Shown: positions 9,144 to 51,274 of the stretch, one piece after another | Layout of the letters: each line of letters opens with the position of its first letter | Position numbering within the stretch: the first letter of the stretch is position 1 | Assembly: GCA_025929535.1 (NCBI GenBank) | Contig: JAICLZ010000002.1 | Span: forward strand, 18,565 to 82,564 | Source of the DNA: Gemmatimonadaceae bacterium | GTDB taxonomy: Bacteria > Gemmatimonadota > Gemmatimonadetes > Gemmatimonadales > Gemmatimonadaceae | Direction: 5' to 3' | Length of the DNA stretch: 64,000 nt | Notes under the pieces: model-generated | Databases searched by the model: none | What the model was told of the DNA's origin: nothing | Seen by the model: the letters and a program-made list of their open reading frames with translations, nothing else | Position numbers and translations under genes: made by a program

Positions 9144-9788
9144 CTAGCGCGAGCGCTTGGTCCGCGGCTTCGCTGTCTGCGCCTTTTTCTTCTTTGCCTT
9201 GGACGCCAGCAACAGTTGAAAATGCTGCCGCAGCTGCGTCACCGTACGATCGAACGGCTCGACCGACCCGTACGATCGTGAGAGCATCACGCCGCCTTCC
9301 ATGATCGCGAGCACGTAGGTCGCGAGCGCGTCGAGATCGGTGTCTCGCGGAAGTCTTGGCTTCAGCTCTTCGATGCACTCGCGAACGGCGCCGATCCACC
9401 CCTGGAAGTTCTTCGCGATGAGCGCGTGCGCGGGGCGGTTCTCGGGATCGATCTCGAGGGCGAGTCGGCCGAGTGGGCAGCCGTATTTGGAATCGGTGAG
9501 AAGAATGCGCTCGCGATAGCCGGCGAGGATGGCGAAGATGCGCTCGACGGGATCGTCGGTTTTGGCGTAGGCCGGGTCGACGATCATGGGCCGGAGCGCG
9601 AAGAGGTAGCCCTCGAGCACTTCGCGGAGGAGGGCTTCCTTGCTCTCGAAGAAGTGGTAGAAGCTGCCGGAATTGACGTTGGCGTGGTCGAGGAGATCGG
9701 CCATGCTCGTGCCGGCGTAGCCGCGCTCCCAGAAGAGATAGCGGGCGGAGTCGATGAGGCGGTCGCGGGTGGGGGCGGTTGGAGGCAT
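9144..9788 (-). CDS. TetR/AcrR family transcriptional regulator
   Basis: N-terminal HTH (RDRLIDSARYLFWERGYAGTSMADLLDHANVNSGSFYHFFESKEAL). Start at ATG 9788. Lys-rich C-terminal tail. Confidence 0.85.
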   Translation of the reverse strand: MPPTAPTRDRLIDSARYLFWERGYAGTSMADLLDHANVNSGSFYHFFESKEALLREVLEGYLFALRPMIVDPAYAKTDDPVERIFAILAGYRERILLTDSKYGCPLGRLALEIDPENRPAHALIAKNFQGWIGAVRECIEELKPRLPRDTDLDALATYVLAIMEGGVMLSRSYGSVEPFDRTVTQLRQHFQLLLASKAKKKKAQTAKPRTKRSR

Positions 9789-9803
9789 CTCGGAAGAAAG
9801 TTG

Positions 9804-9842
9804 TTGACAGATCAATATAGCTCTATTTACTTGAACATTCAA
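9804..9842. promoter_or_regulatory. Candidate promoter/operator in the divergent TetR-SRPBCC intergenic region
   Basis: The 76-bp AT-enriched spacer contains TTGACA (9804..9809) and the palindrome TTGAA-CA-TTCAA (9831..9842). Confidence 0.3.
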
Positions 9843-9864
9843 CCAAGTCAACCGAGGTCCTCAG

Positions 9865-10428
9865 ATGCGCTCGTTTTTCGTAACGGCGGCAGTAGTGACG
9901 GCGGCAGTGGCAGCAGAGCGGCTCACGGTTCCCCAGGCTGCATCCGCAACCGTGGCGGCGAACGCGGATGCGTCGGAGAAGATGCTCCGCTTCGAGATCA
10001 CCGTTCCCGCGCCCAGGGCCGAGGTGTGGAAGGCGTTCGCGACGAGCGAGGGGCTGACCACGTGGCTCGCACCGAATTCGAACGTGGAGCTGAAGCCCGG
10101 CGGCGAGTGGATGGTGCACTTTCCCGGCGGCAGCACGGGCGGCGGGAACATCGTCAGCTTCGTCCCCCAGAAGGAAATCGTCATCTCGGCGCTCGCGCCC
10201 GACCAGTTCCCGACCGTGCGCGCGCAGCGCACGACCGCGCGCTTCGAGCTCGAGGATCACAGCAAGGGCACGCTCGTGCGGCTCACGCAGACCGGCTGGA
10301 AAGACGGAGAGGAGTGGGATCGCGCGTACGAGTATCTCACCGCGGGCAACGCCCAGCTGCTCGCGACGCTGCATCGCCGTTTCGTGAGCGGGCCGATCGA
10401 CTGGTCGAAGCTCTCCGACCACCACTGA
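9865..10428 (+). CDS. Secreted SRPBCC/AHSA1-like domain protein
   Basis: 187 aa with a signal peptide (MRSFFVTAAVVTAAVAA). The body (RFEITVPAPRAEVWKAFATSEGLTTWLAP...VRLTQTGW) resembles the Aha1/START-like fold. Confidence 0.65.
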   Translation: MRSFFVTAAVVTAAVAAERLTVPQAASATVAANADASEKMLRFEITVPAPRAEVWKAFATSEGLTTWLAPNSNVELKPGGEWMVHFPGGSTGGGNIVSFVPQKEIVISALAPDQFPTVRAQRTTARFELEDHSKGTLVRLTQTGWKDGEEWDRAYEYLTAGNAQLLATLHRRFVSGPIDWSKLSDHH

Positions 10429-10431
10429 GGA

Positions 10432-10626
10432 TTGACTCACATGAACATGAGCACCCTCAACGTGTGGGCAATTCTCGTCGCGGCAGTCGTGGCCTTCATG
10501 CTGGGCGCCGTGTGGTTTTCGCCGGCGACCTTCGAGCGCCGGCCGTGGGCGTACGTGCTCGTGAACGGCGGGTATCTGACCGTGGCGCTGGTGATAATGG
10601 GGGCGATACTCGGAGGGTGGAGATAG
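10432..10626 (+). CDS. Short DUF1761-like membrane protein (apparently internally truncated)
   Basis: 64 aa. The N-terminal WAILVAAVVAFMLGAVWFSP and C-terminal GGYLTVALVIMGAILGGW resemble the two ends of DUF1761. The middle of that family, normally about 130 aa long, is missing. Confidence 0.45.
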   Translation: MTHMNMSTLNVWAILVAAVVAFMLGAVWFSPATFERRPWAYVLVNGGYLTVALVIMGAILGGWR

Positions 10627-10690
10627 GGCGAGTCGTGTAACCCTTCGGCGTCTTTAGTGGTGAGGACGGAACTCACTCACGGGAGACGAT

Positions 10691-10879
10691 ATGCACACCT
10701 CAATGACACGCGTGCAGGAATGCGCGATGGCGGTGATCGCGTTCGCGGTGGTCGCAATCGCGATCGCGGCACCGATCGTGGCGCTCGGGCCGAGCGCGAG
10801 CTGGCGGGCGAAGGCGGCGGGCGGGCTCACTGCGCTCGAAGCGCTGATCTCCGTGGTGAGGCGGGTGTTGCAGATCTAG
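10691..10879 (+). CDS. Hypothetical small membrane protein
   Basis: 62 aa with one clear hydrophobic helix (AMAVIAFAVVAIAIAAPIVAL). No recognisable family, and the coding status is uncertain. Confidence 0.25.
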   Translation: MHTSMTRVQECAMAVIAFAVVAIAIAAPIVALGPSASWRAKAAGGLTALEALISVVRRVLQI

Positions 10880-10929
10880 CTCCTCTCCTCAATCACCAGA
10901 TCAGTCAGATTCGGCGTACCGCGCTCGTC

Positions 10930-11280
10930 ATGGGCACCGACTCGATTCGCTACCACTATGCTCTCCAGTGGGGTGCGCTCGACACCTTGACCGATCCCTT
11001 CGGCCACACGTTCGCGTGGCAATACGACGCCGATGGCCGGATGACGCAGCTCGCGCGTCATGCCGAGCGCACGGACACGACCAATGTCGAGCTCACGCGA
11101 TACGATGCCGATAGCCGGCTTCAGTATCGCAGGATCGTGCGCAGGACATCGATGGTGCTCGCCGATAGTCTCACGTACGGTCGACGCGGGAAAGTCGTTC
11201 GCAACGTCCTGAATGGCGACTCGCTCGCCTACACTGGGTTTCGTATCCCTGGAGCAACAGCGATGACGATTAAAATGTAG
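10930..11280 (+). pseudogene. Orphan RHS/YD-repeat fragment
   Basis: The translation contains YD-repeat units (FAWQYDADGRMTQL, LTRYDADSRLQY, LTYGRRGKVV). It is only about 116 aa, with no N-terminal or toxin-tip region. Confidence 0.45.
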
Positions 11281-11307
11281 AACGCGGTGAGGCTGCATCA
11301 GCGTCGC

Positions 11308-38534: not shown

Positions 38535-38574
38535 TCACCCTCCAAGGGAATGACAGGAGGTCGGCCGCCTCTTG

Positions 38575-38611
38575 CTATTCAAACAGACGATTAATACAGT
38601 TGTTTGAATAG
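38575..38611. promoter_or_regulatory. Candidate TetR operator upstream of the HlyD/ABC-2/TetR operon
   Basis: Perfect 11-bp inverted repeat: CTATTCAAACA (38575..38585) and TGTTTGAATAG (38601..38611). It surrounds an AT-rich 15-bp core containing ATTAAT. Confidence 0.5.
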
Positions 38612-38648
38612 TTTCCACGACCGCTCCAGAACTTCGAACACCGAGCTC

Positions 38649-39692
38649 ATGAATCGCAAGCGTCAGATCTTCGTTGCAGTCGCGCTCGTAGTAATGGCGA
38701 TCGCCGCCTACGCGGTCTTCGCCCCCGCAAAGCCACTCGTGCTGACCGGCATCGTCACCACCAACGATGTCATCGTCAGCCCACAGATCGGCGGCCAGGT
38801 GCAGAAGCTTCTCGTCAGCGAGGGCGACTCGGTATCGGCCGGGCAGCTTCTCGCCGTGATCGCCCCGGGCGAGCTCGCCGCCGACCAGGCCTACTATGCG
38901 CACAGCGCCGAGGGCGTGGCAACTGAGGTGCGGGAGAACGAATCTGCCGTTCGGTATCAGGCGCAGCAGATGACGCAACAGGTTCGCCAGGCGGAAGCCA
39001 CGGTCGCGAGCGCCGAGGCACAGCGCGCGCAGACGGCGGCCGACTACGCCAATGCACAGAGCAATTACGACCGCCTCGTGCCTCTCCTCAAGAGCGGTGC
39101 CATCTCGCAACAGACAGCCGACCAGCAGCGCACCGATCTCCTCGTCGCCAAAGCAAAGTCCGAAGCCGCCGACCGTCAGGTCGATGCCCAGCGTGCGGCG
39201 CTCGAGCTCGCACGAGGTCAGCAAGAGCAGGTCGCGATGAAGCGAAGCGCGCTCGCGGCATCGCAGCAGGAACGTGCCGCCGCCACCGCGCAGGCCGCAA
39301 AGGCGAACGTCCGTCTGGGCTACTCCGAGATTCGCGCGCCACTGGCCGGCATCGTCGACGTGCGCGCCGTGCGCGCGGGCGAAGTCGTTGCCGCAGGCGC
39401 GCCCATCCTGACGCTCATCAATCCCGACGACCTCTGGGTGCGCGCGGATGTCGAAGAGAGCTACATCGGCCGCATCAAGCTGGGCGATCACCTCGACGTG
39501 CGCCTTCCCTCGGGTGAAACGCGCAGGGCAATCGTCTTCTTCCGCGGCGTGGATGCGGGCTTCGCCACACAGCGGGATGTGAGTCGCAGCAAGCGCGACA
39601 TCAAGACGTTCGAGATCAGGTTGCGCATCGACAACAAGGATCGCCGCCTCGCCACGGGCATGACGGCGTACGTGCTCCTGCCGGTGTCGTGA
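38649..39692 (+). CDS. HlyD-family membrane fusion protein (YbhG-like)
   Basis: N-terminal TM helix, a lipoyl-like segment (QVQKLLVSEGDSVSAGQLLAVI), a long coiled coil, and IRAPLAGIVDVRAVRAGEVV. The start is ATG 38649 (or 38604). Confidence 0.85.
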   Translation: MNRKRQIFVAVALVVMAIAAYAVFAPAKPLVLTGIVTTNDVIVSPQIGGQVQKLLVSEGDSVSAGQLLAVIAPGELAADQAYYAHSAEGVATEVRENESAVRYQAQQMTQQVRQAEATVASAEAQRAQTAADYANAQSNYDRLVPLLKSGAISQQTADQQRTDLLVAKAKSEAADRQVDAQRAALELARGQQEQVAMKRSALAASQQERAAATAQAAKANVRLGYSEIRAPLAGIVDVRAVRAGEVVAAGAPILTLINPDDLWVRADVEESYIGRIKLGDHLDVRLPSGETRRAIVFFRGVDAGFATQRDVSRSKRDIKTFEIRLRIDNKDRRLATGMTAYVLLPVS

Positions 39693-41812: not shown

Positions 41813-42474
41813 CCGGCGCAGCGGAGCACGGCACGGACACGCGCACGCGACTGCTCGATGCGGCGATGCGCCTCTTCACCGAGCGCGGGTTCGCCAAGGT
41901 GACGGTTCGCGACATCACCGCGGCAGCGGGGGCAAATCTCGCCGCGGTGAGCTATCACTTTCGCGACAAGGCGGGGCTCTACGAGGAAGTGCTCGCGCTC
42001 GGCCTGCGATCGGCGCAGGAGATGAACGCCGAGGTGATGCTGCCGAGGGAGGGGCATTCCCCGGAGGAGCGGATGCGCCACTACGTGCGGCAGTATCTGC
42101 CCCGCATCATTCGCACGGACGGGCGCGGAGGGATTTATCAGCTGTTGAAGCACGAGATGTCGGACCCCACGCCCATCGCGCGAACGTACGTGCGGCAGGC
42201 GATCATGCCGCGCATCGAGTTCCTGATCGAGATCGTTCGCGAGATGCTCGGCGGGACAGCGAGCGACGCCCGCGTGCAGCGCTGCGTGATGAGCATTCAG
42301 GCGCAGTGCCTCTATTTTCTGCCCGATCCCTTCAAGAACCTGGTGGCAGGGGACTGGCAGCCGGGTACGAGCGACCAGATTCGCGAGATGGCGGATCACA
42401 TCGCGGACTTCTCGCTCGCGGGAATCCGCGCGCTCGGCGAAGCACGCCGCGGCCCGCGCGTGCGGCCGCGCTAG
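41809..42474 (+). CDS. TetR family transcriptional regulator (CerR-like C-terminal domain)
   Basis: GTG 41809 overlaps the permease stop (GTGA). HTH: RTRLLDAAMRLFTERGFAKVTVRDITAAAGANLAAVSYHFRDKAGLY. This is only the last 221 codons of ORF 40213..42474. Confidence 0.85.
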   Translation: MTGAAEHGTDTRTRLLDAAMRLFTERGFAKVTVRDITAAAGANLAAVSYHFRDKAGLYEEVLALGLRSAQEMNAEVMLPREGHSPEERMRHYVRQYLPRIIRTDGRGGIYQLLKHEMSDPTPIARTYVRQAIMPRIEFLIEIVREMLGGTASDARVQRCVMSIQAQCLYFLPDPFKNLVAGDWQPGTSDQIREMADHIADFSLAGIRALGEARRGPRVRPR

Positions 42475-42499
42475 CCCGATCTGCGGGGCGCGCAGCAGG

Positions 42500-43201
42500 C
42501 TACTGGTGTGCGCACCACCGCATCACGACCGTTCCCACGATCAGCGCGTTCTCGCGAGGAATCGAGAATGTCGCGAACTCCGGATTGAGCGAGCGCAGCT
42601 CGATCGCCCGCCGCGAGAGCCGGCCCACCGCCTTCACGACATAGCCCTCCTCGGGCCGGCGCGCAACGACGATCGAGTCGCGACGCACCGTCGCGCCGAC
42701 GTTCACGAGCACCACGTCGCCGGCGTGGAGCGCGGGCTCCATGCTGCTGCCGCGCACCGTGAGCGCGACGTACTTGTGCCCCGTGGCGAGCGCGCGAGGC
42801 AGCTCGATCCAGCGCTCGCACGGCTCATCCCAGAGCTCGCGCCCGACTCCCGCAGCAACGCCCAGCTCCGGCCACGGCACGAGCCCCTCGCGCACCGCAC
42901 CATCGTTGCGAGATTCGTGCACCACCGGATCGCCCGGAGCGGCTGTGACACCGAGCTGGCGGGCAAGCACGAGGGCCTGCATGCGCCGCGCGAACCGCTC
43001 CGCTCGTGCCTCCGTCGCACGTCGCTCGCCGCTCCGCTGTCCCGCACGCGCGTCGCGTGCAAGCCACTCGTGAAACTCCGCATTCGCCGCGCTCGCAGGG
43101 TCGAGCCGATGCTCGCCCGCACGCACCACCAGCCGCGCCAGCTCGTCCATCTCGCGCTCTCGCCGCTCCTGGCGATCGCCTGCGTATTCAGTCGGTTCCA
43201 T
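42500..43201 (-). CDS. LexA/CI-like S24 self-cleaving peptidase domain protein lacking a recognisable HTH
   Basis: Strong SD AGGAGGAG lies before ATG 43201. It has an Ala-Gly cleavage-site context (PELGVAAGVG), nucleophile GSSMEP, and the Lys in YVVKAVG. The N-terminal 100 aa are highly charged and helical. Confidence 0.75.
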   Translation of the reverse strand: MEPTEYAGDRQERREREMDELARLVVRAGEHRLDPASAANAEFHEWLARDARAGQRSGERRATEARAERFARRMQALVLARQLGVTAAPGDPVVHESRNDGAVREGLVPWPELGVAAGVGRELWDEPCERWIELPRALATGHKYVALTVRGSSMEPALHAGDVVLVNVGATVRRDSIVVARRPEEGYVVKAVGRLSRRAIELRSLNPEFATFSIPRENALIVGTVVMRWCAHQ

Positions 43202-43949
43202 GTGCTCCTCCTGATTCGGCCACGCGCGAGGCGCGACTGGCCACTTTGCCACGGGCGGATCTCACCATTCCCCGTCCGATTCCACCGCTCCTGCGAAACA
43301 GCTCGATGAGCTCTTCGCGCTCCGCACCCGTGCATTCGTTCACGTGACGCAGCGCGCGCTCGCGCAGCCGGCTTCGCGTGCGCGAGAGCCGCACCTTGGC
43401 CGCGGAATATCCGATGCCGAGCCACGCCGCGATCTCGCGCATCGGCACGGCGTTGCTCACCCACGTGAGCATCTGCCGCTCCTCCGTCGAGAGCTCGGCG
43501 TCGAGCGTCGCGGCGAGGCGTGCGATGGCGGGCGAAGGGGCGATCGCCCGCGCGCTCATGCTTCCGCCGCTCGCACGCAGCGAGCTCTCGGAGCAGCTCG
43601 CGAGTGCCACGCGCTCCCCGGTCTCCTCGGCGTACGACGTCGCCCGCGCGTCGCGCTGCTGGCGTCGTGCGACCGAGCGGCGTGCATCGAGAAAGTGATT
43701 GCGGAACGCGCGCTGGATGTACCGATGGATGTCGCGCACCGATTCCCGCGCGCGAGCACCTGAGCTGCACTCCACCAGCGAGAGCACGACCGCGCCGAGC
43801 ACATCGTGCGCATCCTCCTCCCACGCGTCCGACAGCACGCCGGCGCGTGCCGCGTAGCGCGCCAGCAGCGGCTCGAAGCGCAGGTAGAACTCGCGCAGCG
43901 CGTCGTAGCTCCCCTGGCGCATCGCTGCCACGAGCTCCGCGTCCGACAT
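43188..43949 (-). CDS. ECF-type sigma-70 family factor with about 50-aa C-terminal extension
   Basis: Region 2 (YDALREFYLRFEPLLARYAAR...DAHDVLGAVVL) and region 4 HTH (LSTEERQMLTWVSNAVPMREIAAWLGIGYSAAKVRLSRTRSRLR). It overlaps the S24 gene start by 14 nt. Confidence 0.75.
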   Translation of the reverse strand: MSDAELVAAMRQGSYDALREFYLRFEPLLARYAARAGVLSDAWEEDAHDVLGAVVLSLVECSSGARARESVRDIHRYIQRAFRNHFLDARRSVARRQQRDARATSYAEETGERVALASCSESSLRASGGSMSARAIAPSPAIARLAATLDAELSTEERQMLTWVSNAVPMREIAAWLGIGYSAAKVRLSRTRSRLRERALRHVNECTGAEREELIELFRRSGGIGRGMVRSARGKVASRASRVAESGGAHGTD

Positions 43950-44059
43950 CTCCCGCCACCGGCCACGCTCGCTCACCGTCGCCTCCGCTCGCCATCCTCG
44001 CGCACCGTGCGCGCAGATCGTCTCGACACTTCGCTCGCCACTGTGAAGACGCCGGATGG

Positions 44060-44680
44060 TTACATGGCCATCGGTTCGGACTGGCGCTGCCGGTCTAGCC
44101 ACGCGCGCAGCCGGCTGGCGATCCGCGTGAGGTTCTCGCGGGCGGGCGGGTGCGCGAGGAGGCGCGCGCTGGTGCGCGCCGCGCGCGCGGGACGCATGCC
44201 GGCCTGGCGCGCGAGGGCGAGGAGGGACAGCGCGTCGCTGAGCGCATCCGCGTGCGACTGGAGGAGCGGCGAGAACGCGGGAGCCGGCGGCGCGCTGCGC
44301 GGACGGGGCGCCGATACGCGAAGCGGCGTCTGCCTCGCACGCGCCACGCGCACCATCTCTTCCCGGCTCGGACGCTCGGCGCTCGCGGTGAAGCCGAGGT
44401 TCGCGAGGGCGCGACCGATGGCGGAGGTCTCGGTGTTCTCGAGGCACGCGACGGCGTTGACATCGCCATCGCCTTCCCGCTCGAGCGCCCAGCCGGTTGC
44501 GGCCGGCTTCGCATCCTCGGCGGTTCGGTAGACGCGCGCGCAGAAGATCACGAAGCGCGCATCGCGCTGGACCAGCGAGGTGATGATTCGCCCAGCGGGG
44601 AAGCGCTCGTAGAAGAGCGTGATGCGGCGCGCGACGGGCGCATAGCGCTCCAGGTCGTACCCATGTTCGGCTTTCGGCAT
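44060..44680 (-). CDS. Hypothetical protein, N-terminal domain reminiscent of Rad52/Sak-type single-strand annealing proteins
   Basis: Start at ATG 44680. The segment ATGWALEREGDGDVNAVACLENTETSAIGRALANLGF resembles the conserved annealase core. The C-terminal half is Ala/Arg/Pro-rich. The assignment is tentative. Confidence 0.5.
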   Translation of the reverse strand: MPKAEHGYDLERYAPVARRITLFYERFPAGRIITSLVQRDARFVIFCARVYRTAEDAKPAATGWALEREGDGDVNAVACLENTETSAIGRALANLGFTASAERPSREEMVRVARARQTPLRVSAPRPRSAPPAPAFSPLLQSHADALSDALSLLALARQAGMRPARAARTSARLLAHPPARENLTRIASRLRAWLDRQRQSEPMAM

Positions 44681-44765
44681 TGCAGGATCCTCGCTGCCTT
44701 CGACGGATGCAACCGGAGAGCGCACGATAAACCGAAGAAATCCCGAAAGCAACAGATGAACCGCA

Positions 44766-44797
44766 AGTCACTCGTAATCAATGGGTTACGAGCGACT
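44766..44797. promoter_or_regulatory. 12-bp inverted repeat between the arylsulfotransferase-like gene and the annealase/sigma/S24 operon
   Basis: AGTCACTCGTAA (44766..44777) and TTACGAGCGACT (44786..44797), with one mismatch and an 8-nt spacer. It could be an operator or a terminator hairpin. Confidence 0.35.
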
Positions 44798-44819
44798 CAG
44801 GATCGGCAGGGCGCTCGCT

Positions 44820-46271
44820 CTACGGTGCCTCGTAGCCGTAGAGCGAGGCGATCTTCGTGAAGCGGTAGGGAATCTGATCGGTAGGCACGCTCAGGGTTCC
44901 TTCCCACACGGTCGTTCCGGAGGAGGTCACCTCCGTGGCGGTGAGAGGCCGTCCGAACGTCCAGCCGATGAACGTATTTCCATTCGCCAGGCGCTGGACT
45001 GAACCGGTGAAGGATGTGTAGATGGGCGGCGCGTGAGTGAAGTCCCACACCTTGGTCGCCGTATGCGCGCCGGTGTCCAGCTGGTACTCCAACGCCCGGC
45101 TGGCCTGCGTGGCGTGCCGGGTCCCGTTGTCGAAGATGAGCAGATTTCCATTGTCGAGACTGCGAACGCTGTGCTGCGCGCTGAACCCGTTCAGCGGATC
45201 GCCGGTGATCGTGAAATCGCTCGCGATCGTGGCGAAGGGGCCGGCGAGCGTCCAGATGAGCGCTCCGGTGGAAGCATCGATGTTCGTGATCACATCGAGA
45301 TTCCGCCAGGAAACGACGTAGTTGCCGTCGGCCGCGATCGAGACCGCGTTCGGATGATCGAAATCGAGCTGTCCCGGAACGGGCTCCACGTTGTCCGTGA
45401 TCGCGAAGTGATCCCATGCGTCGAACACCACCGATTTCGTGCCGCTCGCATCCTGCCGGATGAGCTGGTGCCCGGTCACGAGCGAGTCCGCCGATCCCCC
45501 GTGCGACGACTCGTCGAAATGCCGCGCGGTGTATGCGAGGAAGAGCGCCCCGGCGTACGCGCCGTGCGAATCGGTGAGCTCCCAGAACTCGTGGCCGTCC
45601 AGATACGACGAGTCGGGCGCCGTGTACGTGCGCAGGATCGTTCCGTCCGGAGCGATCGCCACTGCCTGTCCCGGCACCGGTTCACCGCCATGGGATGTGG
45701 TCAGCACGGCGGTGATGTCGCCGTTCGTCTGCTGCTTGACCTCTTCGGTCGGAATCGCTCCCGGGAAGGAGCGGTACCACGCCAGCTGGCCCGCGGAGTC
45801 GAACGCCACGACGTGTGCCGAGGTGCCGTCGAAGATCGAGGTGAGGACGTAGCCGCCGCTGGAAGGCGATGCGCCCGTGAACGATGACGAGGAGAGGAAC
45901 GTCGGCAGCGTGTCGGTCGTGAAGGAGACGGTGTCCGAGGTGCGCTGCGTGTGGCTGTTGGCTGCTTCGATGGCGAAGTTATACTGCGTGCCGGGACGGA
46001 GTCCGAGCACGACCATGCGGCTGGTTCCCGTATCGCCCACGAACGGTGTGTGCTGCTTCGCGCCGGTGCCGGTCCAGTACACGACGCGCGCCGAATCGAC
46101 GTTGGTCGGTTCGAGCGTCAGAATCGCGGAGAGCACGTTGTTCGAGTTGGGCGTGACGACCAGGTTCGACACCCTGGGCAAGGTTGCCGGCCCATTGGTT
46201 CCGTTGTCATCGCCGCATGCAGAGAGCAGCACGGCGAACGCCGCCATGCCGATGAGGCCTGTCCGTTTCAC
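44820..46271 (-). CDS. Arylsulfotransferase (ASST)-like beta-propeller lipoprotein
   Basis: SD GGAGG lies before GTG 46271. Lipobox VLLSAC. An N-terminal Ig/FN3-like segment is followed by ASST-like motifs (DFDHPNAVSI, HSVRSLDNGNLLIFDNG, VQRLANGNTFIGW). Confidence 0.7.
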   Translation of the reverse strand: MKRTGLIGMAAFAVLLSACGDDNGTNGPATLPRVSNLVVTPNSNNVLSAILTLEPTNVDSARVVYWTGTGAKQHTPFVGDTGTSRMVVLGLRPGTQYNFAIEAANSHTQRTSDTVSFTTDTLPTFLSSSSFTGASPSSGGYVLTSIFDGTSAHVVAFDSAGQLAWYRSFPGAIPTEEVKQQTNGDITAVLTTSHGGEPVPGQAVAIAPDGTILRTYTAPDSSYLDGHEFWELTDSHGAYAGALFLAYTARHFDESSHGGSADSLVTGHQLIRQDASGTKSVVFDAWDHFAITDNVEPVPGQLDFDHPNAVSIAADGNYVVSWRNLDVITNIDASTGALIWTLAGPFATIASDFTITGDPLNGFSAQHSVRSLDNGNLLIFDNGTRHATQASRALEYQLDTGAHTATKVWDFTHAPPIYTSFTGSVQRLANGNTFIGWTFGRPLTATEVTSSGTTVWEGTLSVPTDQIPYRFTKIASLYGYEAP

Positions 46272-46419
46272 GTTCCCCTCCTCGAGTGGTGATGCAGGGC
46301 ATGCGTCGTCATGCGTGCGCTGGGAGTACAGTGCCGCGACGCATTCCCTGCAGATCAAGTTCCCTTTGCACCGTTGCGAAAATCATGCGCACGAGCCGGG
46401 ATGCACCCACAGGATTGCT

Positions 46420-46458
46420 TTCTCCTGAATTGGAGTTATTATTCTCCTGAACAGGAGA
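46420..46458. promoter_or_regulatory. Candidate operator of the RES/Xre toxin-antitoxin operon
   Basis: TTCTCCTGAA is repeated directly at 46420 and 46442, 22 bp apart. The second copy is part of the palindrome TCTCCTG-AA-CAGGAGA (46443..46458), whose right arm is the SD of the antitoxin. Confidence 0.45.
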
Positions 46459-46463
46459 CACTC

Positions 46464-46901
46464 TTGGCCACCCGCGCCTACCCCGCCACCCGCTACGAGC
46501 CGTCGCCCCTGGTCGATCTCACATCGGCCCCCGCGCGCGAACGGCTGAGCCCCTCTGCGCTCAAGACGTTCTTCACCATCGTCGAGCACTGGAGGCTTCG
46601 CGACGAAGACGCACGCACGCTCCTCGGCGGCGTCACGAATGGGCCGTACTACGAAATGAAAAGGCAGCCTGGCGGCCGCGTGCTCGATCCCGACAGGCTC
46701 CTTCGCATTTCCTATCTCATCGGCATCTTCAAGGCGCTCAACATCCTCCACGGCAGCGCGATCGCGGATGAATGGGTGCAGCTGCCGAACACGAACCGGA
46801 TCTTCGGCGGCACCACGCCGCTGGCCTACATGCTCAGGGGCGGCGTCACGGCAATGCAGACCGTGCGGCGGTTGCTCGACGCGCGGCGCGGCGGAATGTG
46901 A
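46464..46901 (+). CDS. Antitoxin, Xre/MbcA/ParS-like (DUF2384 toxin-binding domain)
   Basis: TTG 46464 lies 5 nt after AGGAGA; the ORF extends to 46311. The C-terminal domain reads RISYLIGIFKALNILHGSAIADEWVQLPNTNRIFGGTTPLAYML. The stop overlaps the RES gene start (ATGTGA). Confidence 0.75.
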   Translation: MATRAYPATRYEPSPLVDLTSAPARERLSPSALKTFFTIVEHWRLRDEDARTLLGGVTNGPYYEMKRQPGGRVLDPDRLLRISYLIGIFKALNILHGSAIADEWVQLPNTNRIFGGTTPLAYMLRGGVTAMQTVRRLLDARRGGM

Positions 46902-47590
46902 CGGCGGCTCCACTCACCACGCTCGTCCGCCGCAACGACACGCACCGCCTGATCCCGTCGCAGCATCGGGACGATGGACGCACCGTGCTCGCACGCCTCG
47001 CGCACGGCGAGGCCGAGCTCGGTGATCTGTACGACCTCGACAACGCCACGAACGACCGCCTGCTCGCGGAGAACGACCTGCTCCCCGACATCCGCGTGCA
47101 CGAGCTCCTCTTCGGCGTACCGTACTATCGTATCGTCAACGCCTCCTTCACCCACGCCCACCCGCTCGGCAGCCGCTTCAACGGCCCCGATCGGGGCGCG
47201 TGGTACGCGGCATTCGAGATCAGGACCGCGCAGGCCGAAGTGGCCTTTCACAAGTCGCTGCACCTCGAAGAGATCGGCCGCTTCGACGACGAGGTGACCT
47301 TCGACGACTACCTCGCCGACTTCAGCTGCGAGCTCCACGATCTCCGCAAACGCGACGCGTTCGCGCCCTATCTCGACCCCGGGAGCTACGTCGCGTCCCA
47401 GACCCTCGCCGCTCGTCTCCTGAACGACGGCTCGCTCGGCATCATCTATCCGAGCGTTCGTCGCGCCGGCGGCACGTGCATCGCCTGCTTTCGGCCGGCG
47501 CTCGTCATGAACGTGCGGCGAGCGAAGACGTATCGCTTCCGATGGAGCGGCACGCCGACACCCGTGATCACGGTGGATACGCGGGGCTGA
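46898..47590 (+). CDS. RES-domain toxin (MbcT/ParT family)
   Basis: The R-E-S signature is spread over GSRFNGPDRGAWY, AQAEVAFH and IIYPSVRRAGGTCIACF. GTG start at 46898. Confidence 0.8.
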   Translation: MTAAPLTTLVRRNDTHRLIPSQHRDDGRTVLARLAHGEAELGDLYDLDNATNDRLLAENDLLPDIRVHELLFGVPYYRIVNASFTHAHPLGSRFNGPDRGAWYAAFEIRTAQAEVAFHKSLHLEEIGRFDDEVTFDDYLADFSCELHDLRKRDAFAPYLDPGSYVASQTLAARLLNDGSLGIIYPSVRRAGGTCIACFRPALVMNVRRAKTYRFRWSGTPTPVITVDTRG

Positions 47591-48487
47591 TCACTTTTTC
47601 GCCGCCATTCCGCGCAGCAGCTTCATCATCTTCACATCGTACGGGTCCGGCGCGGGATCGTCATCCGCGATCTCGAAGTTCGCCTGCGGCGTCTCGAGAA
47701 TCAGCGGCACCTTCTTCGCCCGCTTGTCCGCGAGCAGCCAGCCGAAGGGCTCCTTCCCGATGTTGCCGTCGCCGATGAGCGCGTGCCGGTCCTTGTTCGA
47801 GCCGAGCGCGCCCTCGCTGTCGTTCAGATGAAAGAACGACGGCGGCGCGCCCGCCGCTTCCTCGAACGCATCGAGGATCTTCGTGAACGCCGCGCGCGAG
47901 GCCGTGATGTCGTGCCCGGCTGCGTAGAGATGACAGCTGTCGAGCCCGAAGCCGGTGCGCTCGCGCAGCGAAGCAGGCACATCCTCGAGCATCATCCCGA
48001 TCTCCTCCGGCGTGCGCCCCATCGTGAGCCCGGCACCCGCCGTGTTCTCGATCAACACGCGCGTGCCGCCTTTCACCGTCTGCAGCGCATGCGTGATCGC
48101 CTTCGCCACGCGTTTGGCGGCCGACGCGCGGTCACCACCCGTTGCCGCACCCGGATGAAAGCAGATCTGTCCAACGCCGAGCGCGGTCGAGCGCTCGAGC
48201 TCCTTCGTGAGCCCGTCGCGCGCGCGGATCCATTTCTCCTCATCGTTGGACGCCGTGTTGAGCACGTAGGCCGAGTGCACGACCACGTTCTCCGGCGCGA
48301 TGCCGGCTTTCTCGAGCGCGGCCCTGAATCGTTCGACGCGCTCGGGCCGAATGGACTGCTTGTCGCCGTAATACTTCGGTATGGTCGTGAAGATCTGCAG
48401 CGCGCTCATGTCGGCGTTGCCGGCGCGCAGCGCGGCCATGTCGATGCCGCCGTTGTCGATCGTGTGTGCGCCGAGCAGTAATGGCAT
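47591..48487 (-). CDS. nfo: Deoxyribonuclease IV (endonuclease IV)
   Basis: TIM-barrel AP endonuclease 2 motifs: VVHSAYVLN, ICFHPGA, LIENTAG, DSCHLYAAG and FHLNDS. Confidence 0.9.
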   Translation of the reverse strand: MPLLLGAHTIDNGGIDMAALRAGNADMSALQIFTTIPKYYGDKQSIRPERVERFRAALEKAGIAPENVVVHSAYVLNTASNDEEKWIRARDGLTKELERSTALGVGQICFHPGAATGGDRASAAKRVAKAITHALQTVKGGTRVLIENTAGAGLTMGRTPEEIGMMLEDVPASLRERTGFGLDSCHLYAAGHDITASRAAFTKILDAFEEAAGAPPSFFHLNDSEGALGSNKDRHALIGDGNIGKEPFGWLLADKRAKKVPLILETPQANFEIADDDPAPDPYDVKMMKLLRGMAAKK

Positions 48488-48571
48488 GTGTATGAAGGGG
48501 GAAGAGAGCTTGCGTGTGACGGCGTGCGCCTTGCAACTTTTCCAGTCTCCCTAGAATAGCGATTCGTCGTC

Positions 48572-50329
48572 ATGCCTGTCGCCACCAAATCCCCAGCAGC
48601 CCCGGAAGCGCCCGCCGCGCCGGTGATCACCGTAACGTTTCCGGCGGCCGAGAAGCCGGAAGGGCGCGCCCCGGGCGCCGAAGGCGCCAGGGGATCCATA
48701 GTAGGGTTCAACGGTCGCCGGCGTACGCCGCCGCCCGTAAACGAGCCGGTTCGCAGCTACGCACCGGGCACGCCCGAGCGCGCCGAGCTCAAGGCGCGCC
48801 TCGACTCGATGTCTGCCGAGCAGGTCGACATCCCGATCGTCGTCGACGGCCGCGAGATCCGAACCGGCGACACTGCGCAGATCGTGATGCCGCACGCGCA
48901 CCAGCACGTGCTCGGCAGCTGGCACGCGGCCACCACCGAGCACGTTGCGCAGGCCATCAAGGCTGCCGAGCGCGCGCGGGCCGACTGGGGCAACTGGCCC
49001 TTCGAGGAGCGCGCCGGCGTCTTTCTGCGCGCGGCCGAGCTGCTCTCCACCAGACATCGGGCAACGATCAACGCCGCCACGATGCTCGGCCAATCGAAGA
49101 CGGCGTTCCAGGCCGAGGTCGATGCCGCGTGCGAGCTCGCCGACTTCTGGCGCTTCAATGTGCACTTCGCGGAGAACCTCTACGCCGACCAGCCGATCAG
49201 CGATCGCGGCATCTGGAACCAGACGGACTATCGCCCGCTGGAGGGATTCATCTACGCGGTGACGCCGTTCAACTTCACGGCTATCGGCGGCAATCTCCCC
49301 ACCGCTCCCGCGCTCATGGGCAACACGGTGCTCTGGAAGCCGTCGATGACGGCGATGCTGAGCGCGCACTACGTGATGCAGATCCTCACCGAGGCCGGTC
49401 TGCCGCCGGGTGTGATCAACTTTCTGCCGGGCGACCCGGTCGCGATCTCGAACGCGGCGCTCTCGCACCGCGATTTTGCCGGGCTGCATTTCACGGGCAG
49501 CACGACGGTGTTCAACCTGATGTGGAAGCAGATAGGCGCGAACACGAACAGCTATCGCACCTATCCGCGGATCGTCGGCGAGACGGGCGGCAAGGACTTC
49601 ATCGTTGCGCATCCGAGCGCGGACACCGAGGCGCTCGCGGTCGCGATCGTGCGCGGCGGCTTCGAGTACCAGGGACAGAAGTGCTCGGCCGCCAGCCGCA
49701 TCTACGTTCCGCAGTCGCTCTGGGGCGAGGTGCGCGATCGCGTGATCGCGATGATGAAGGAGATCACGGTCGGCGACGTGCGCGACTTCCGGAACTTCAT
49801 GGGCGCAGTGATCGACAAGCGTGCGTTCGACAAGATCAGCGGCTATCTCGCCGACGCGAAGAGGAACGCGAAGGTGCTCGCGGGCGGCACGGCGCGCGGC
49901 GAGACGGGGTGGTTCATCGATCCCACGCTCGTCGAGGCCACGGATCCATCGTACCGCCTGATGTGCGAGGAGATCTTCGGCCCCGTGGTCACGGCGTATG
50001 CGTATCCCGATGCGAAGTACTCGGAGATCCTCGACACCGTGAATCGCACGTCGCCGTACGCGCTCACGGGATCCATCTTCGCGCGCGACCGCGGTGCCGT
50101 GCACGAGGCGATGCTCAGGCTGCGCGACGCGGCTGGCAACTTCTACATCAACGACAAGCCCACGGGCGCGGTGGTCGGACAGCAGCCGTTCGGCGGCGCG
50201 CGCGCATCGGGAACGAACGACAAGGCGGGCTCGATGCTCAACCTCGCGCGCTGGGTGAGCGCGCGCTCGGTGAAGGAGACGTTCGCACCGCCGCACGATT
50301 TCAAGTATCCGTTCATGGGAGCGGAGTAG
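48572..50329 (+). CDS. pruA: L-glutamate gamma-semialdehyde (1-pyrroline-5-carboxylate) dehydrogenase
   Basis: Aldehyde dehydrogenase fold with FNFTAIGGNL, VGETGGKDF and the catalytic Cys in GQKCSAASR. The C-terminal end is typical of PruA. Confidence 0.9.
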   Translation: MPVATKSPAAPEAPAAPVITVTFPAAEKPEGRAPGAEGARGSIVGFNGRRRTPPPVNEPVRSYAPGTPERAELKARLDSMSAEQVDIPIVVDGREIRTGDTAQIVMPHAHQHVLGSWHAATTEHVAQAIKAAERARADWGNWPFEERAGVFLRAAELLSTRHRATINAATMLGQSKTAFQAEVDAACELADFWRFNVHFAENLYADQPISDRGIWNQTDYRPLEGFIYAVTPFNFTAIGGNLPTAPALMGNTVLWKPSMTAMLSAHYVMQILTEAGLPPGVINFLPGDPVAISNAALSHRDFAGLHFTGSTTVFNLMWKQIGANTNSYRTYPRIVGETGGKDFIVAHPSADTEALAVAIVRGGFEYQGQKCSAASRIYVPQSLWGEVRDRVIAMMKEITVGDVRDFRNFMGAVIDKRAFDKISGYLADAKRNAKVLAGGTARGETGWFIDPTLVEATDPSYRLMCEEIFGPVVTAYAYPDAKYSEILDTVNRTSPYALTGSIFARDRGAVHEAMLRLRDAAGNFYINDKPTGAVVGQQPFGGARASGTNDKAGSMLNLARWVSARSVKETFAPPHDFKYPFMGAE

Positions 50330-50332
50330 CCG

Positions 50333-51274
50333 GTGGCTGCTCCCGCTCCGCGCTCCGTGCGGGCGCGATACTACACGCTGGATGTGTTCACGGAAGAGGC
50401 GTTCGGCGGCAATCCGCTCGCGGTGTTCCCGGACTCGACGAAGATTCCCGAGGTCGCGCTGCAGAGCATCGCGCTCGAGATGAATCTCTCGGAGACGGTG
50501 TTCGTCTATCCGCCATCGGACCCGCAGTATACGCGTCGCGCTCGCATCTTCACGCCGGTGTACGAGATGCCCTTCGCCGGCCATCCGACCGTGGGCTGCG
50601 CATTCGCGCTCGCGGCGCTCGGCGAGATCCCGCTCGCGGGTGAAACGCGGATCACGCTGGAGGAAGGAGTGGGTCCGGTTCCCGTGCTCATCCGGGGCCA
50701 GTTCAAGAGGCCGGAGTTCGCCCAGCTGTCGGTGGCGAAGCTGCCCGAGATCGGACCCCCGCCTCCCGGACGCTCGCATCTGGCCGAGATGTTGTCGCTC
50801 GACGCGCAGGACATCCTTGGAGGGATGTCGGCACCGCAGGCGATCTCGTGCGGATTTCCCTTTCTCATCGTGCCGCTGCGGGATCTGGACGCCGTTCGGC
50901 GCGCGCGGGTACGCATGGACCAGTGGGACTCGTCGCTCAAGTCGTACTGGGCGCCGGACGTGATGGTGTTCGCGCGCGATACGGAACGTGAGGGCGTGAT
51001 CCGCGCGCGCGTGTTCGTGCCGGGTCAGGGAATCATCGAGGATCCGGCCACGGGCTCCGCGGCCGCGGCCCTCGGCGGCTATCTCGCGGCGCGCGAGAGC
51101 GCGGCGACCGGAAATTTCACCTACCTGGTGGAGCAGGGCTTCGAGATCAAGCGGCCGAGCTTCATCGAGCTCGAAGTGGACAAGGCGCAGGGCGAGGTGA
51201 CGGCGGTGCGCGTGGGGGGCTCAGCGGTGATGGTGAGCGAGGCGATAATGGAGATCCCGCTCCCGCGCGATTGA
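50333..51274 (+). CDS. PhzF-family isomerase-like protein
   Basis: YYTLDVFTEEAFGGNPLAVF, EMNLSETVFV, FAGHPTVG and DPATGSAAAALGGYL. Confidence 0.85.
   Translation: MAAPAPRSVRARYYTLDVFTEEAFGGNPLAVFPDSTKIPEVALQSIALEMNLSETVFVYPPSDPQYTRRARIFTPVYEMPFAGHPTVGCAFALAALGEIPLAGETRITLEEGVGPVPVLIRGQFKRPEFAQLSVAKLPEIGPPPPGRSHLAEMLSLDAQDILGGMSAPQAISCGFPFLIVPLRDLDAVRRARVRMDQWDSSLKSYWAPDVMVFARDTEREGVIRARVFVPGQGIIEDPATGSAAAALGGYLAARESAATGNFTYLVEQGFEIKRPSFIELEVDKAQGEVTAVRVGGSAVMVSEAIMEIPLPRD

Follow-up and report, generated by a model that had tools for sequence, protein, structure and literature searches.

Does the S24 peptidase encoded beside a sigma gene in Gemmatimonadota act as an anti-sigma factor that destroys itself by cleavage? 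The question is raised by a three-gene module in a 64,000-nucleotide stretch of a Gemmatimonadaceae genome (assembly GCA_025929535.1, contig JAICLZ010000002.1, positions 18,565 to 82,564), to which we refer as the window. The module region (42500-44752) holds three co-directional minus-strand genes: g1, encoding a protein with a predicted Rad52/ERF-like fold; a gene for a sigma factor resembling the extracytoplasmic function (ECF) group; and a gene for a protein with a LexA/UmuD-like S24 domain (Table 1). The module is real, conserved and apparently undescribed; its mechanism is what we infer here. We favor, tentatively and a little short of an even chance, the explanation that the S24 protein (S24 below) is a self-cleaving anti-sigma factor for an autoregulated sigma factor that drives RHS-type genes, with sigma binding, cleavage and trigger all predicted.

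The S24 gene is coupled to a sigma gene in all 68 loci counted

We scanned one genome per species and obtained 80 loci (given handles such as L016), nearly all from metagenome-assembled genomes (MAGs) of Gemmatimonadaceae or Gemmatimonadales. Sigma and S24 genes were counted in the 68 loci with more than 850 nt of sequence 5′ of the S24 gene, and g1 in the 56 loci with room for it.

A sigma gene lay directly 5′ of the S24 gene in 68/68 loci, one of these sigma genes being detectable by profile alone, and the pairing held at sigma identities down to about 30%. This is far beyond chance, and it answers the survey of ECF sigma and S24 co-occurrence that an initial annotation of this DNA had proposed. 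The two genes overlapped in 61 of the 68 loci, mostly at ATGA or GTGA, with overlaps of 4 nt (33 loci), 8 nt (9), 14 nt (12) and other lengths (7). S24 therefore holds the downstream, co-translated position of an anti-sigma factor. In the window the sigma stop and S24 start overlap by 14 nt (43188-43201) and AGGAGG precedes the S24 start codon, which bears out the annotated minus-strand operon with translational coupling and a strong Shine-Dalgarno sequence before the S24 gene.

The first gene is less constant. g1 preceded sigma in 42/56 loci and was missing from 14; it is thus a frequent yet dispensable member. All-against-all clustering of the flanking open reading frames (ORFs) showed that g1, sigma and S24 were the only shared genes. 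The flanks of the window were kept in close relatives and changed in distant ones, and this comparison indicates that the module occupies a stable chromosomal site in close relatives. Coding sequences and catalytic residues were conserved even though identity falls to about 40% for S24 and about 30% for sigma.

S24 combines a LexA-type catalytic domain with a family-specific N-terminal domain

As read in the initial annotation, S24 carries the full set of LexA/CI autoproteolysis elements. PF00717 matched residues 115-226 with 68.5 bits (cutoff 23.3, E 5e-19). The predicted cleavage site lies between Ala117 and Gly118, the spacings from this site to Ser153 (35 residues) and from Ser153 to Lys190 (37 residues) equal those of Escherichia coli LexA, and A116, A117, G118, Ser153 and Lys190 were invariant in 78 S24 homologues. 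E. coli LexA is cleaved at A84/G85 and uses S119 and K156. The AlphaFold2 model of the whole protein, built on the homologue alignment, had a mean confidence (pLDDT) of 85 and a pTM of 0.73. When its C-terminal domain was compared with known structures using Foldseek, the matches were LexA (3k2z, E 1e-7), lambda CI, LexA-RecA complexes and UmuD′ (E 1e-7 to 1e-3), with alignments spanning 131-137 columns that included the cleavage-site regions of LexA and lambda CI. Judged by profile and model, the catalytic half is a genuine domain of the LexA/UmuD type, and self-cleavage itself is predicted.

The N-terminal half is different. Residues 1-112 had no family, helix-turn-helix (HTH) or solved-structure match in Pfam, NCBIfam, PHROG or PDB sequence profiles, and the absence of an HTH noted in the annotation thus holds as far as one can be recognized. 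The region was instead modeled as three long helices (residues 5-29, 38-53 and 57-82, of 25, 16 and 26 residues). Aligned with LexA by hhalign, the N-domain profile gave a probability of 0.2%; it was without similarity to the sigma family, and only the C-domain of the S24 model aligned credibly with LexA structures. A profile search run exhaustively against 1.84 billion representative proteins returned 152 N-domain matches. Because nearly all of these were N-domain+S24 proteins of 225-290 aa, or shorter fragments thereof, the N-domain appears to be restricted to fusion with S24. W46 was its sole near-invariant residue.

The N-domain also diverges rapidly. Mean identity was 31% for the N-domain, 38-44% for sigma and 58% for the S24 domain. 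In several MAGs the module is present twice (L016/L056, L021/L053, L038/L040 and L057/L060), which is consistent with insulated paralogous switches. In L016/L056, the sole complete pair, the N-domains were 19% and the S24 domains 60% identical. Fast divergence of N-domain and sigma, strongest between paralogues, is the pattern expected of insulated sigma/anti-sigma pairs.

The sigma factor is a divergent ECF-like protein

By its family profile the sigma factor is a divergent ECF-like (group 4) member. A profile of 38 orthologues matched CnrH (4cxf_A, E 8e-8) over CnrH residues 7-183, a span that covers both sigma2 and sigma4. The single sequence, on the other hand, fell under curated cutoffs: Pfam Sigma70_r4_2 gave 20.1 bits against a cutoff of 25.7, and Sigma70_r2 gave no match. 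The ECF assignment in the annotation is upheld by the family profile over both domains. The protein consists of sigma2 (about residues 5-95) and sigma4 (about 150-205), without sigma1.1 or sigma3. They are joined by a linker of about 55 aa that carries a conserved CSExxxRASxGP (alignment A2), and region 4 is followed by an extra conserved helix, ERxELxRFFRR. The orthologue alignment contained no conserved Ala-Gly site in the sigma linker or tail. The main text of the ECF reclassification paper makes no mention of S24, LexA or Gemmatimonadetes.

Motif 2 is a candidate promoter for sigma-S24 and for RHS operons

Upstream of the sigma gene we found an asymmetric element of about 28 nt, motif 2, which consists of TGTAAC or TGTCAC, N3, CCGGYGYC and then about 12 nt. 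About 35 loci have it in register, in variants that differ between lineages, at or past the g1 stop codon. It lies 43-434 nt 5′ of sigma; its distance to the next start codon downstream is, where measured, roughly 45-115 nt. When the sigma-upstream and S24-downstream regions were searched without bias for their best common 22-mer, motif 2 was recovered in at least 20 loci. The two copies of a locus shared lineage-specific variants, and the orientation was always towards the downstream genes. The downstream copy is preceded by a terminator-like hairpin in 12 loci, where the genes after it encode a signal-peptide protein and an RHS-repeat protein of giant size (PF05593, E 6e-18).

The 19-nt motif 2 core occurred twice in the window (44064..44046 and 10636-10654), compared to 0.00 occurrences expected. 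The second copy, site B, is 33 kb from the module on the opposite strand, and the motif together with the small ORF that follows it was conserved in at least 9 metagenome contigs. ORF 10657..11280, which overlaps the small ORF in another frame, scored 22 bits with RHS_repeat PF05593, equal to the cutoff, and is possibly a frameshifted RHS fragment.

Orientation, distance to the start codon, position after terminators and co-variation suggest that motif 2 is a promoter, most simply one read by the module's own sigma factor. The ECF-type AAC −35 and CGT −10 elements sit 16-17 nt apart (AAC-N16/17-CGT), a spacing that motif 2, in which TGTAAC and CGTC are 7-8 nt apart, does not fit. A palindrome was likewise rejected, as symmetry was inconsistent across lineages. 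The paralogous module L056 has its own motif 2 variant. A heptamer, CGTTAGG/CCTAACG, recurs 3′ of S24 in L015, L021, L024, L028, L036, L039, L056 and L238, in several of these loci after the terminator hairpin and before the downstream copy of motif 2.

One could argue that the module descends from a mobile element, such as a phage or island regulatory cassette, that it has been domesticated or is decaying and no longer serves its host, and that the motif 2 copies flanking sigma-S24 are relics of recombination or attachment. The g1 family is abundant in phage contigs, motif 2 direct repeats bracket sigma-S24 in at least 20 loci, some MAGs carry two copies of the module, and one lineage has a broken sigma gene and no S24 catalytic domain. 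Against this stand the conservation of coding sequences and catalytic residues at identities of about 40% (S24) and 30% (sigma) and the stable chromosomal position in close relatives. The sigma-coupled S24 family was absent from the 2.9 million viral contigs of IMG/VR, and no integrase, tRNA, structural or lysis genes were found near the module. The annotation had allowed for an obvious prophage in related genomes; no conserved phage genes surround the module. In addition, the second motif 2 of the window stands 33 kb off, on the other strand, before a conserved ORF. We consider a mobile-element remnant very improbable.

The degenerate lineage (L081 4578-5612 and L238 232-1091; also L239 and L240) has the following arrangement. 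A sigma2 ORF ends at an in-frame stop (L081) or a frameshift (L238), after which one ORF joins sigma4, with its C-terminal helix, in frame to helices 1-3 of the N-domain and ends in ...ERA(E/T)RPA, without an S24 catalytic domain. Motif 2 copies still flank these loci and a signal-peptide protein follows, plus an RHS-repeat gene in L081. The fusion proteins P0373 (seen on 5 contigs that represent at least 4 samples) and P0377 (seen on 2 contigs) were considered as Rosetta-stone evidence for an interaction of sigma with the N-domain. We rejected them as firm evidence: the sigma gene is broken and the S24 catalytic domain is missing, which suggests products of decay.

A sigma70-like promoter contains an operator-like direct repeat

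The module has a second upstream element. The pattern TTGnnT-N17-TAnnnT was found 5′ of g1, or 5′ of sigma where g1 is missing, in about 60 loci; in the window it lies about 44 nt 5′ of the g1 ATG. The window copy matches the E. coli consensus at a weak 7/12 positions, while relatives including L077 show TTGACT...TATAAC. A scan for consensus promoters and terminators over 42300-45000 reported nothing. As the consensus match is weak and the scanner was silent, the promoter call rests on conservation across loci.

The spacer of this promoter contains the direct repeat TTCGG-N6-TTCGG, with a period of 11 bp. It is the single match in the window, and there is one perfect copy per related locus, mostly 31-60 nt (up to 129 nt) 5′ of g1. 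In g1-less loci it lies mostly 88-197 nt 5′ of sigma, with outlying distances of 738 nt (L016) and 901 nt (L051). No further perfect copies were present in 0.7 Mb of flanking sequence or in 1.8 Mb of viral loci. The period of 11 bp rules out that the repeat is itself a −35/−10 pair of the sigma factor. The element as a whole looks like a sigma70-type promoter with a candidate operator. No canonical lexA or recA gene was present in the DNA examined, all of which was searched for them with the host SOS box in view.

The main rival explanation is that S24 is a LexA/CI-like repressor that binds DNA through its three-helix N-domain, which would be a novel domain of that kind. A dimer on the direct repeat or on motif 2 would silence g1-sigma-S24 and the RHS operons, sigma would be controlled at the level of synthesis only, in the manner of SigN by LexA on pBS32 or PrtN by PrtR in pyocin control, and cleavage would derepress. 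The S24 proteins LexA, CI, PrtR and SetR are all repressors. An 11-bp-period repeat in a promoter spacer, found once in each module and nowhere else in the DNA examined, points to a module-encoded binder. This is not g1, since the 14 g1-less loci keep the repeat. A repressed sigma70-type promoter with a second site 5′ of sigma parallels sigN of plasmid pBS32 (see below), helix 3 of the N-domain is Arg-rich, and both the N-domain and motif 2 vary between lineages and might co-evolve.

Several observations nevertheless speak against a repressor. The N-domain lacks any HTH, winged-HTH or ribbon-helix-helix signature and any similarity to LexA, and its long helices of 25, 16 and 26 residues are unlike an HTH. 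No N-domain polar residue is invariant alongside the invariant direct repeat, and each conserved Arg (R49, R52, R60, R73 and R82) is substituted in loci with a perfect TTCGG repeat. Indirectly, the lack of a conserved polar residue to read the invariant repeat favors an anti-sigma factor over a repressor. Motif 2, which is asymmetric and about 28 nt long, is unlike a dimer operator. If motif 2 is sigma-dependent, repression upstream only would leave positive feedback unchecked. Finally, the tight coupling to sigma is typical of binding partners. On balance we regard a repressor as possible but rather doubtful.

A model in which S24 holds and releases the sigma factor

The self-cleaving anti-sigma model that we favor describes the module as a Gemmatimonadota-restricted chromosomal switch in which translational coupling would supply the ECF-like sigma factor and its partner in a fixed ratio. 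The sigma70-type promoter with its direct-repeat operator would provide gated basal transcription of g1, sigma and S24, while the three-helix N-domain of S24 would keep sigma inactive. A trigger would then stimulate S24 to cut itself at Ala117-Gly118; by analogy with LexA, CI and UmuD, filaments of RecA on single-stranded DNA (ssDNA) are the likeliest trigger. The N-terminal fragment would end in ...VAA and, through this ClpX signal, would be degraded. The N-fragment of LexA and RseA(1-108) both carry a C-terminal VAA ClpX signal, and RseA(1-108) is removed by ClpXP. Freed sigma with core RNA polymerase would transcribe from the motif 2 promoters of about 28 nt. The copy before sigma-S24 would give positive feedback, buffered by newly made S24. 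Other copies would activate target operons, in many relatives those for a secreted protein and a giant RHS-repeat toxin. In this scheme we infer the binding of S24 to sigma, the cleavage and its trigger, the degradation of the N-fragment and the reading of motif 2 by this sigma factor.

Besides the conserved position of the S24 gene, the circuit itself argues for inhibition. If a sigma-dependent promoter drives both sigma and S24, then S24 must inhibit sigma, as feedback would otherwise run away. An autoregulated sigma factor braked by a co-made anti-sigma factor is the standard logic of ECF systems.

A number of observations weigh against the anti-sigma model. To our knowledge nearly all characterized S24 proteins with an N-terminal domain are DNA-binding repressors. 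The operator-like, seemingly module-specific repeat calls for a DNA-binding protein, which could be S24, and helix 3 of the N-domain is basic (+4). Residues 1-112 carry no anti-sigma signature, neither HxxxCxxC nor a Pfam anti-sigma match (zf-HC2, RskA). With TIGR02937 the single sigma sequence scored 40.7 bits (E 1.7e-10), below the cutoff of 42.9. The conserved blocks of motif 2 are 3 nt apart with no clear −10 element, so that motif 2 could be an operator, and the g1-less loci yielded no convincing motif 2 pair. A mirror-tree comparison found no excess of sigma/N-domain co-variation over that with the S24 domain and was uninformative.

g1 resembles phage single-strand annealing proteins at the fold level

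The initial annotation described the first gene as annealase-like, and this is supported at the level of the fold. g1 had no match in the local Pfam and NCBIfam, nor by sequence in any named single-strand annealing protein (SSAP) family, and a PDB sequence-profile search gave nothing significant. It matched phrog_11717, whose function is unassigned in PHROG, with E 7e-28, and its close relatives in the protein database bear the precomputed label PF27148.1. The AlphaFold2 model (pLDDT 81) has an alpha-beta-beta-beta-alpha core (H10-26, E31-39, E43-51, E61-68, H76-94), in a layout of a Rad52/ERF-like single-strand-annealing fold (residues 1-118) followed by a C-terminal helical domain. Against the PDB, Foldseek ranked human RAD52 first, weakly (E 0.02). 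Against BFVD, uncharacterized Caudovirales proteins came first (about E 1e-12 to 1e-5), followed by proteins annotated as ERF, SAK3, Rad52/59/22 and RecT (about E 2e-6 to 7e-3 for the ERF, SAK3 and Rad52 models). The viral contigs of IMG/VR contain at least 586 relatives. These matches support the view that g1 is a phage-type, annealase-like protein at fold level.

A YqaJ exonuclease directly precedes the g1 homologue in one (L176) of six phage contigs examined; the module itself has no exonuclease. In phage contigs (L176 8920-10798; L201 and L220 around 9700-11300) the g1 homologues lie in replication/recombination regions. Further neighbors there are a DUF6378 protein and two Pfam-negative proteins of about 250 aa and about 140 aa, which from their sequences look like a metallophosphoesterase and a nuclease, respectively.

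Another possibility is that S24 is no inhibitor but a UmuD-like accessory or processing factor. Its cleaved form would activate or stabilize sigma, or S24 would cut the linker or C-terminal extension of sigma in trans, or aid g1 in recombination or damage tolerance, in which last case sigma would merely be co-expressed. UmuD is an established precedent for an S24 protein that lacks an HTH and has an active cleaved form, the S24 model matches UmuD′, g1 is a recombination-type protein, and the CSExxxRASxGP linker and C-terminal helix of sigma could serve processing or docking. This is improbable, however, as the N-domain is a folded domain of 85 residues and no short arm, no locus contains a Y-family polymerase or other UmuC-like partner, no Ala-Gly is conserved in the sigma linker or tail, and g1 is absent from a quarter of loci.

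It could be speculated that the anti-sigma model extends to a specific signal and output. An intracellular ssDNA signal would lead to the cutting of S24, making it the first LexA-type self-destroying anti-sigma factor, and the freed sigma would amplify itself and turn on RHS polymorphic-toxin operons. RecA filaments could provide the signal, as could, more speculatively, filaments of the module's phage-derived g1; the module would then be an SOS-like or infection-sensing sigma switch specific to the phylum Gemmatimonadota. We consider this full version unlikely, though a real possibility.

Comparison with known systems

Full-text literature searches found no S24-type or LexA-like anti-sigma factor and no description of this Gemmatimonadota module. 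The initial annotation had likewise known of no such mechanism. Searches for LexA in Gemmatimonas found nothing relevant.

S24 shares with LexA, lambda CI and UmuD the C-domain fold, the Ser-Lys dyad, the Ala-Gly site and the spacing between them, its N-fragment would end in ...VAA, and stimulation by RecA-ssDNA is presumed as for these proteins. In contrast to LexA and CI, which have an HTH or winged HTH, and to UmuD, which has a short arm, S24 has a family-specific three-helix N-domain. Its gene is also always coupled to a sigma gene, and there is no UmuC partner. In PrtR-PrtN (pyocins), RdgA-RdgB and SetR-SetCD, a self-cleaving S24 regulator gates a dedicated activator of toxin, bacteriocin or mobile-element genes. 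Their output resembles the RHS link described here, but there the gating is done by CI-like HTH repressors, and none of the activators is a sigma factor.

As in sigmaE-RseA (DegS/RseP/ClpXP), a sigma gene is coupled to a downstream partner, with a probable autoregulated promoter and, in our prediction, proteolytic release. RsgI and FecR are autoproteolytic anti-sigma factors (PMC10328401, PMC12036975). Unlike RseA, RsgI and FecR, S24 is cytoplasmic, with no transmembrane segment and no anti-sigma domain or zinc motif. It also differs from them in that a LexA-type protease lies within the partner itself and the signal would be intracellular (ssDNA) and not derived from the envelope.

A similar two-promoter layout is that of sigN (ZpdN) on the Bacillus subtilis plasmid pBS32, which has a LexA-repressed SigA promoter and a SigN-dependent promoter (bioRxiv 10.1101/624585). 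There too a DNA-damage-responsive S24 regulator stands above a dedicated sigma factor, as predicted here. However, pBS32 uses the winged-HTH LexA of the host, which is not sigma-adjacent, whereas the S24 described here is HTH-less, module-encoded and coupled to sigma. In Myxococcus, the ECF sigma/anti-sigma pair DdvS/DdvA controls a defense island (PMC11506125, PMC6061681). This pair is similarly dedicated to a conflict or defense locus, but DdvA is transmembrane and without a protease domain.

With the phage SSAPs (Rad52/Sak, ERF, Sak3) g1 shares the beta-beta-beta-alpha core, and its homologues lie in phage recombination regions. Unlike them it heads a regulatory operon, without an exonuclease partner or membership of a named SSAP Pfam family.

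If the anti-sigma model is true, the module would join LexA-type damage-responsive self-cleavage with proteolytic release of an ECF sigma factor, two principles that have so far been separate. Sigma control would gain a new class, and synthetic biology a simple two-protein switch triggered by damage. In Gemmatimonadota, an abundant and little-studied soil phylum, the module would offer a first way into the regulation of stress and conflict, including the activation of RHS toxin loci. If S24 is a repressor instead, its N-domain would be a new DNA-binding fold joined to a LexA protease.

Coordinates and neighborhood of the module

The features discussed above are listed in Table 1. For the sigma gene, gene callers prefer an alternative GTG start at 43976, which gives a protein of 262 aa (P0121).

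Table 1. Features of the module and related sites (window coordinates)
Feature	Position	Strand	Details
g1	44680..44060	-	206 aa; GAGGA 8 nt 5′ of ATG
Sigma gene	43949..43188	-	253 aa
S24 gene	43201..42500	-	233 aa; AGGAGG 5 nt 5′ of ATG
S24 N-domain, residues 1-85	42947..43201	-	Three long helices in AlphaFold2 model; proposed sigma-binding (anti-sigma) domain
S24 (LexA/UmuD-like) catalytic domain	42500..42859	-	PF00717 and Foldseek
Predicted autocleavage site Ala117-Gly118 (PELGVAA/GVGRELWDE)	42853..42848	-	Invariance and LexA spacing
Ser153 (GSSMEP)	42745..42743	-	Predicted catalytic Ser nucleophile
Lys190 (VVKAVG)	42634..42632	-	Predicted general base
Sigma70-like promoter	44724..44752	-	TTGCTT (44752..44747), 17-nt spacer, TATCGT (44729..44724)
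Operator-like direct repeat TTCGGGATTTCTTCGG	44732..44747	-	TTCGG-N6-TTCGG, 11-bp period; in promoter spacer
Motif 2 site A TGTAACCATCCGGCGTCTTCACAGTGGC	44037..44064	-	Overlaps g1 stop; 115 nt 5′ of sigma ATG
Motif 2 site B TGTAACCCTTCGGCGTCTT	10636..10654	+	55 nt 5′ of 62-aa ORF 10691..10879 (MHTSMTRVQECAMAVIA...)

The module has a GC content of 0.70, compared to about 0.66 for the window, and its composition is not atypical. No tRNA genes and no phage genes were found in the window. PADLOC gave no defense-system match for the three module proteins, and Rfam at a permissive threshold gave nothing credible over 42300-45000.

One flank of the module holds a convergent TetR/CecR regulator and an ABC-2 transporter. 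The opposite flank holds an arylsulfotransferase-like protein (ASST), a toxin-antitoxin pair of an Xre/MbcA-type antitoxin and a RES toxin (46311-47590, plus strand) and an apurinic/apyrimidinic (AP) endonuclease of the Endo IV family (47591-48487, minus strand). The initial annotation had read a DNA-damage or phage-defense flavor from the last two. These neighbors are real, but only close relatives, with an S24 at least 80% identical, keep them beside the module. For this reason we rejected a functional link, and their nearness to the module appears coincidental. The RHS-repeat operons are the more telling association.

Two ORFs without a Pfam match, 48551-50779 and 38535-39491 (both on the minus strand; 742 and 318 aa), are kept in close relatives and may be real genes or artefacts of high GC.

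Two hairpins lie between the stop codon of the arylsulfotransferase-like gene and the module promoter, at 44766-44797 (12-nt arms AGTCACTCGTAA / TTACGAGCGACT) and 44814-44847. At the position of the first, the differing sequences of L003, L004, L005 and L007 still pair. This suggests a conserved structure, which may be a terminator or an insulator.

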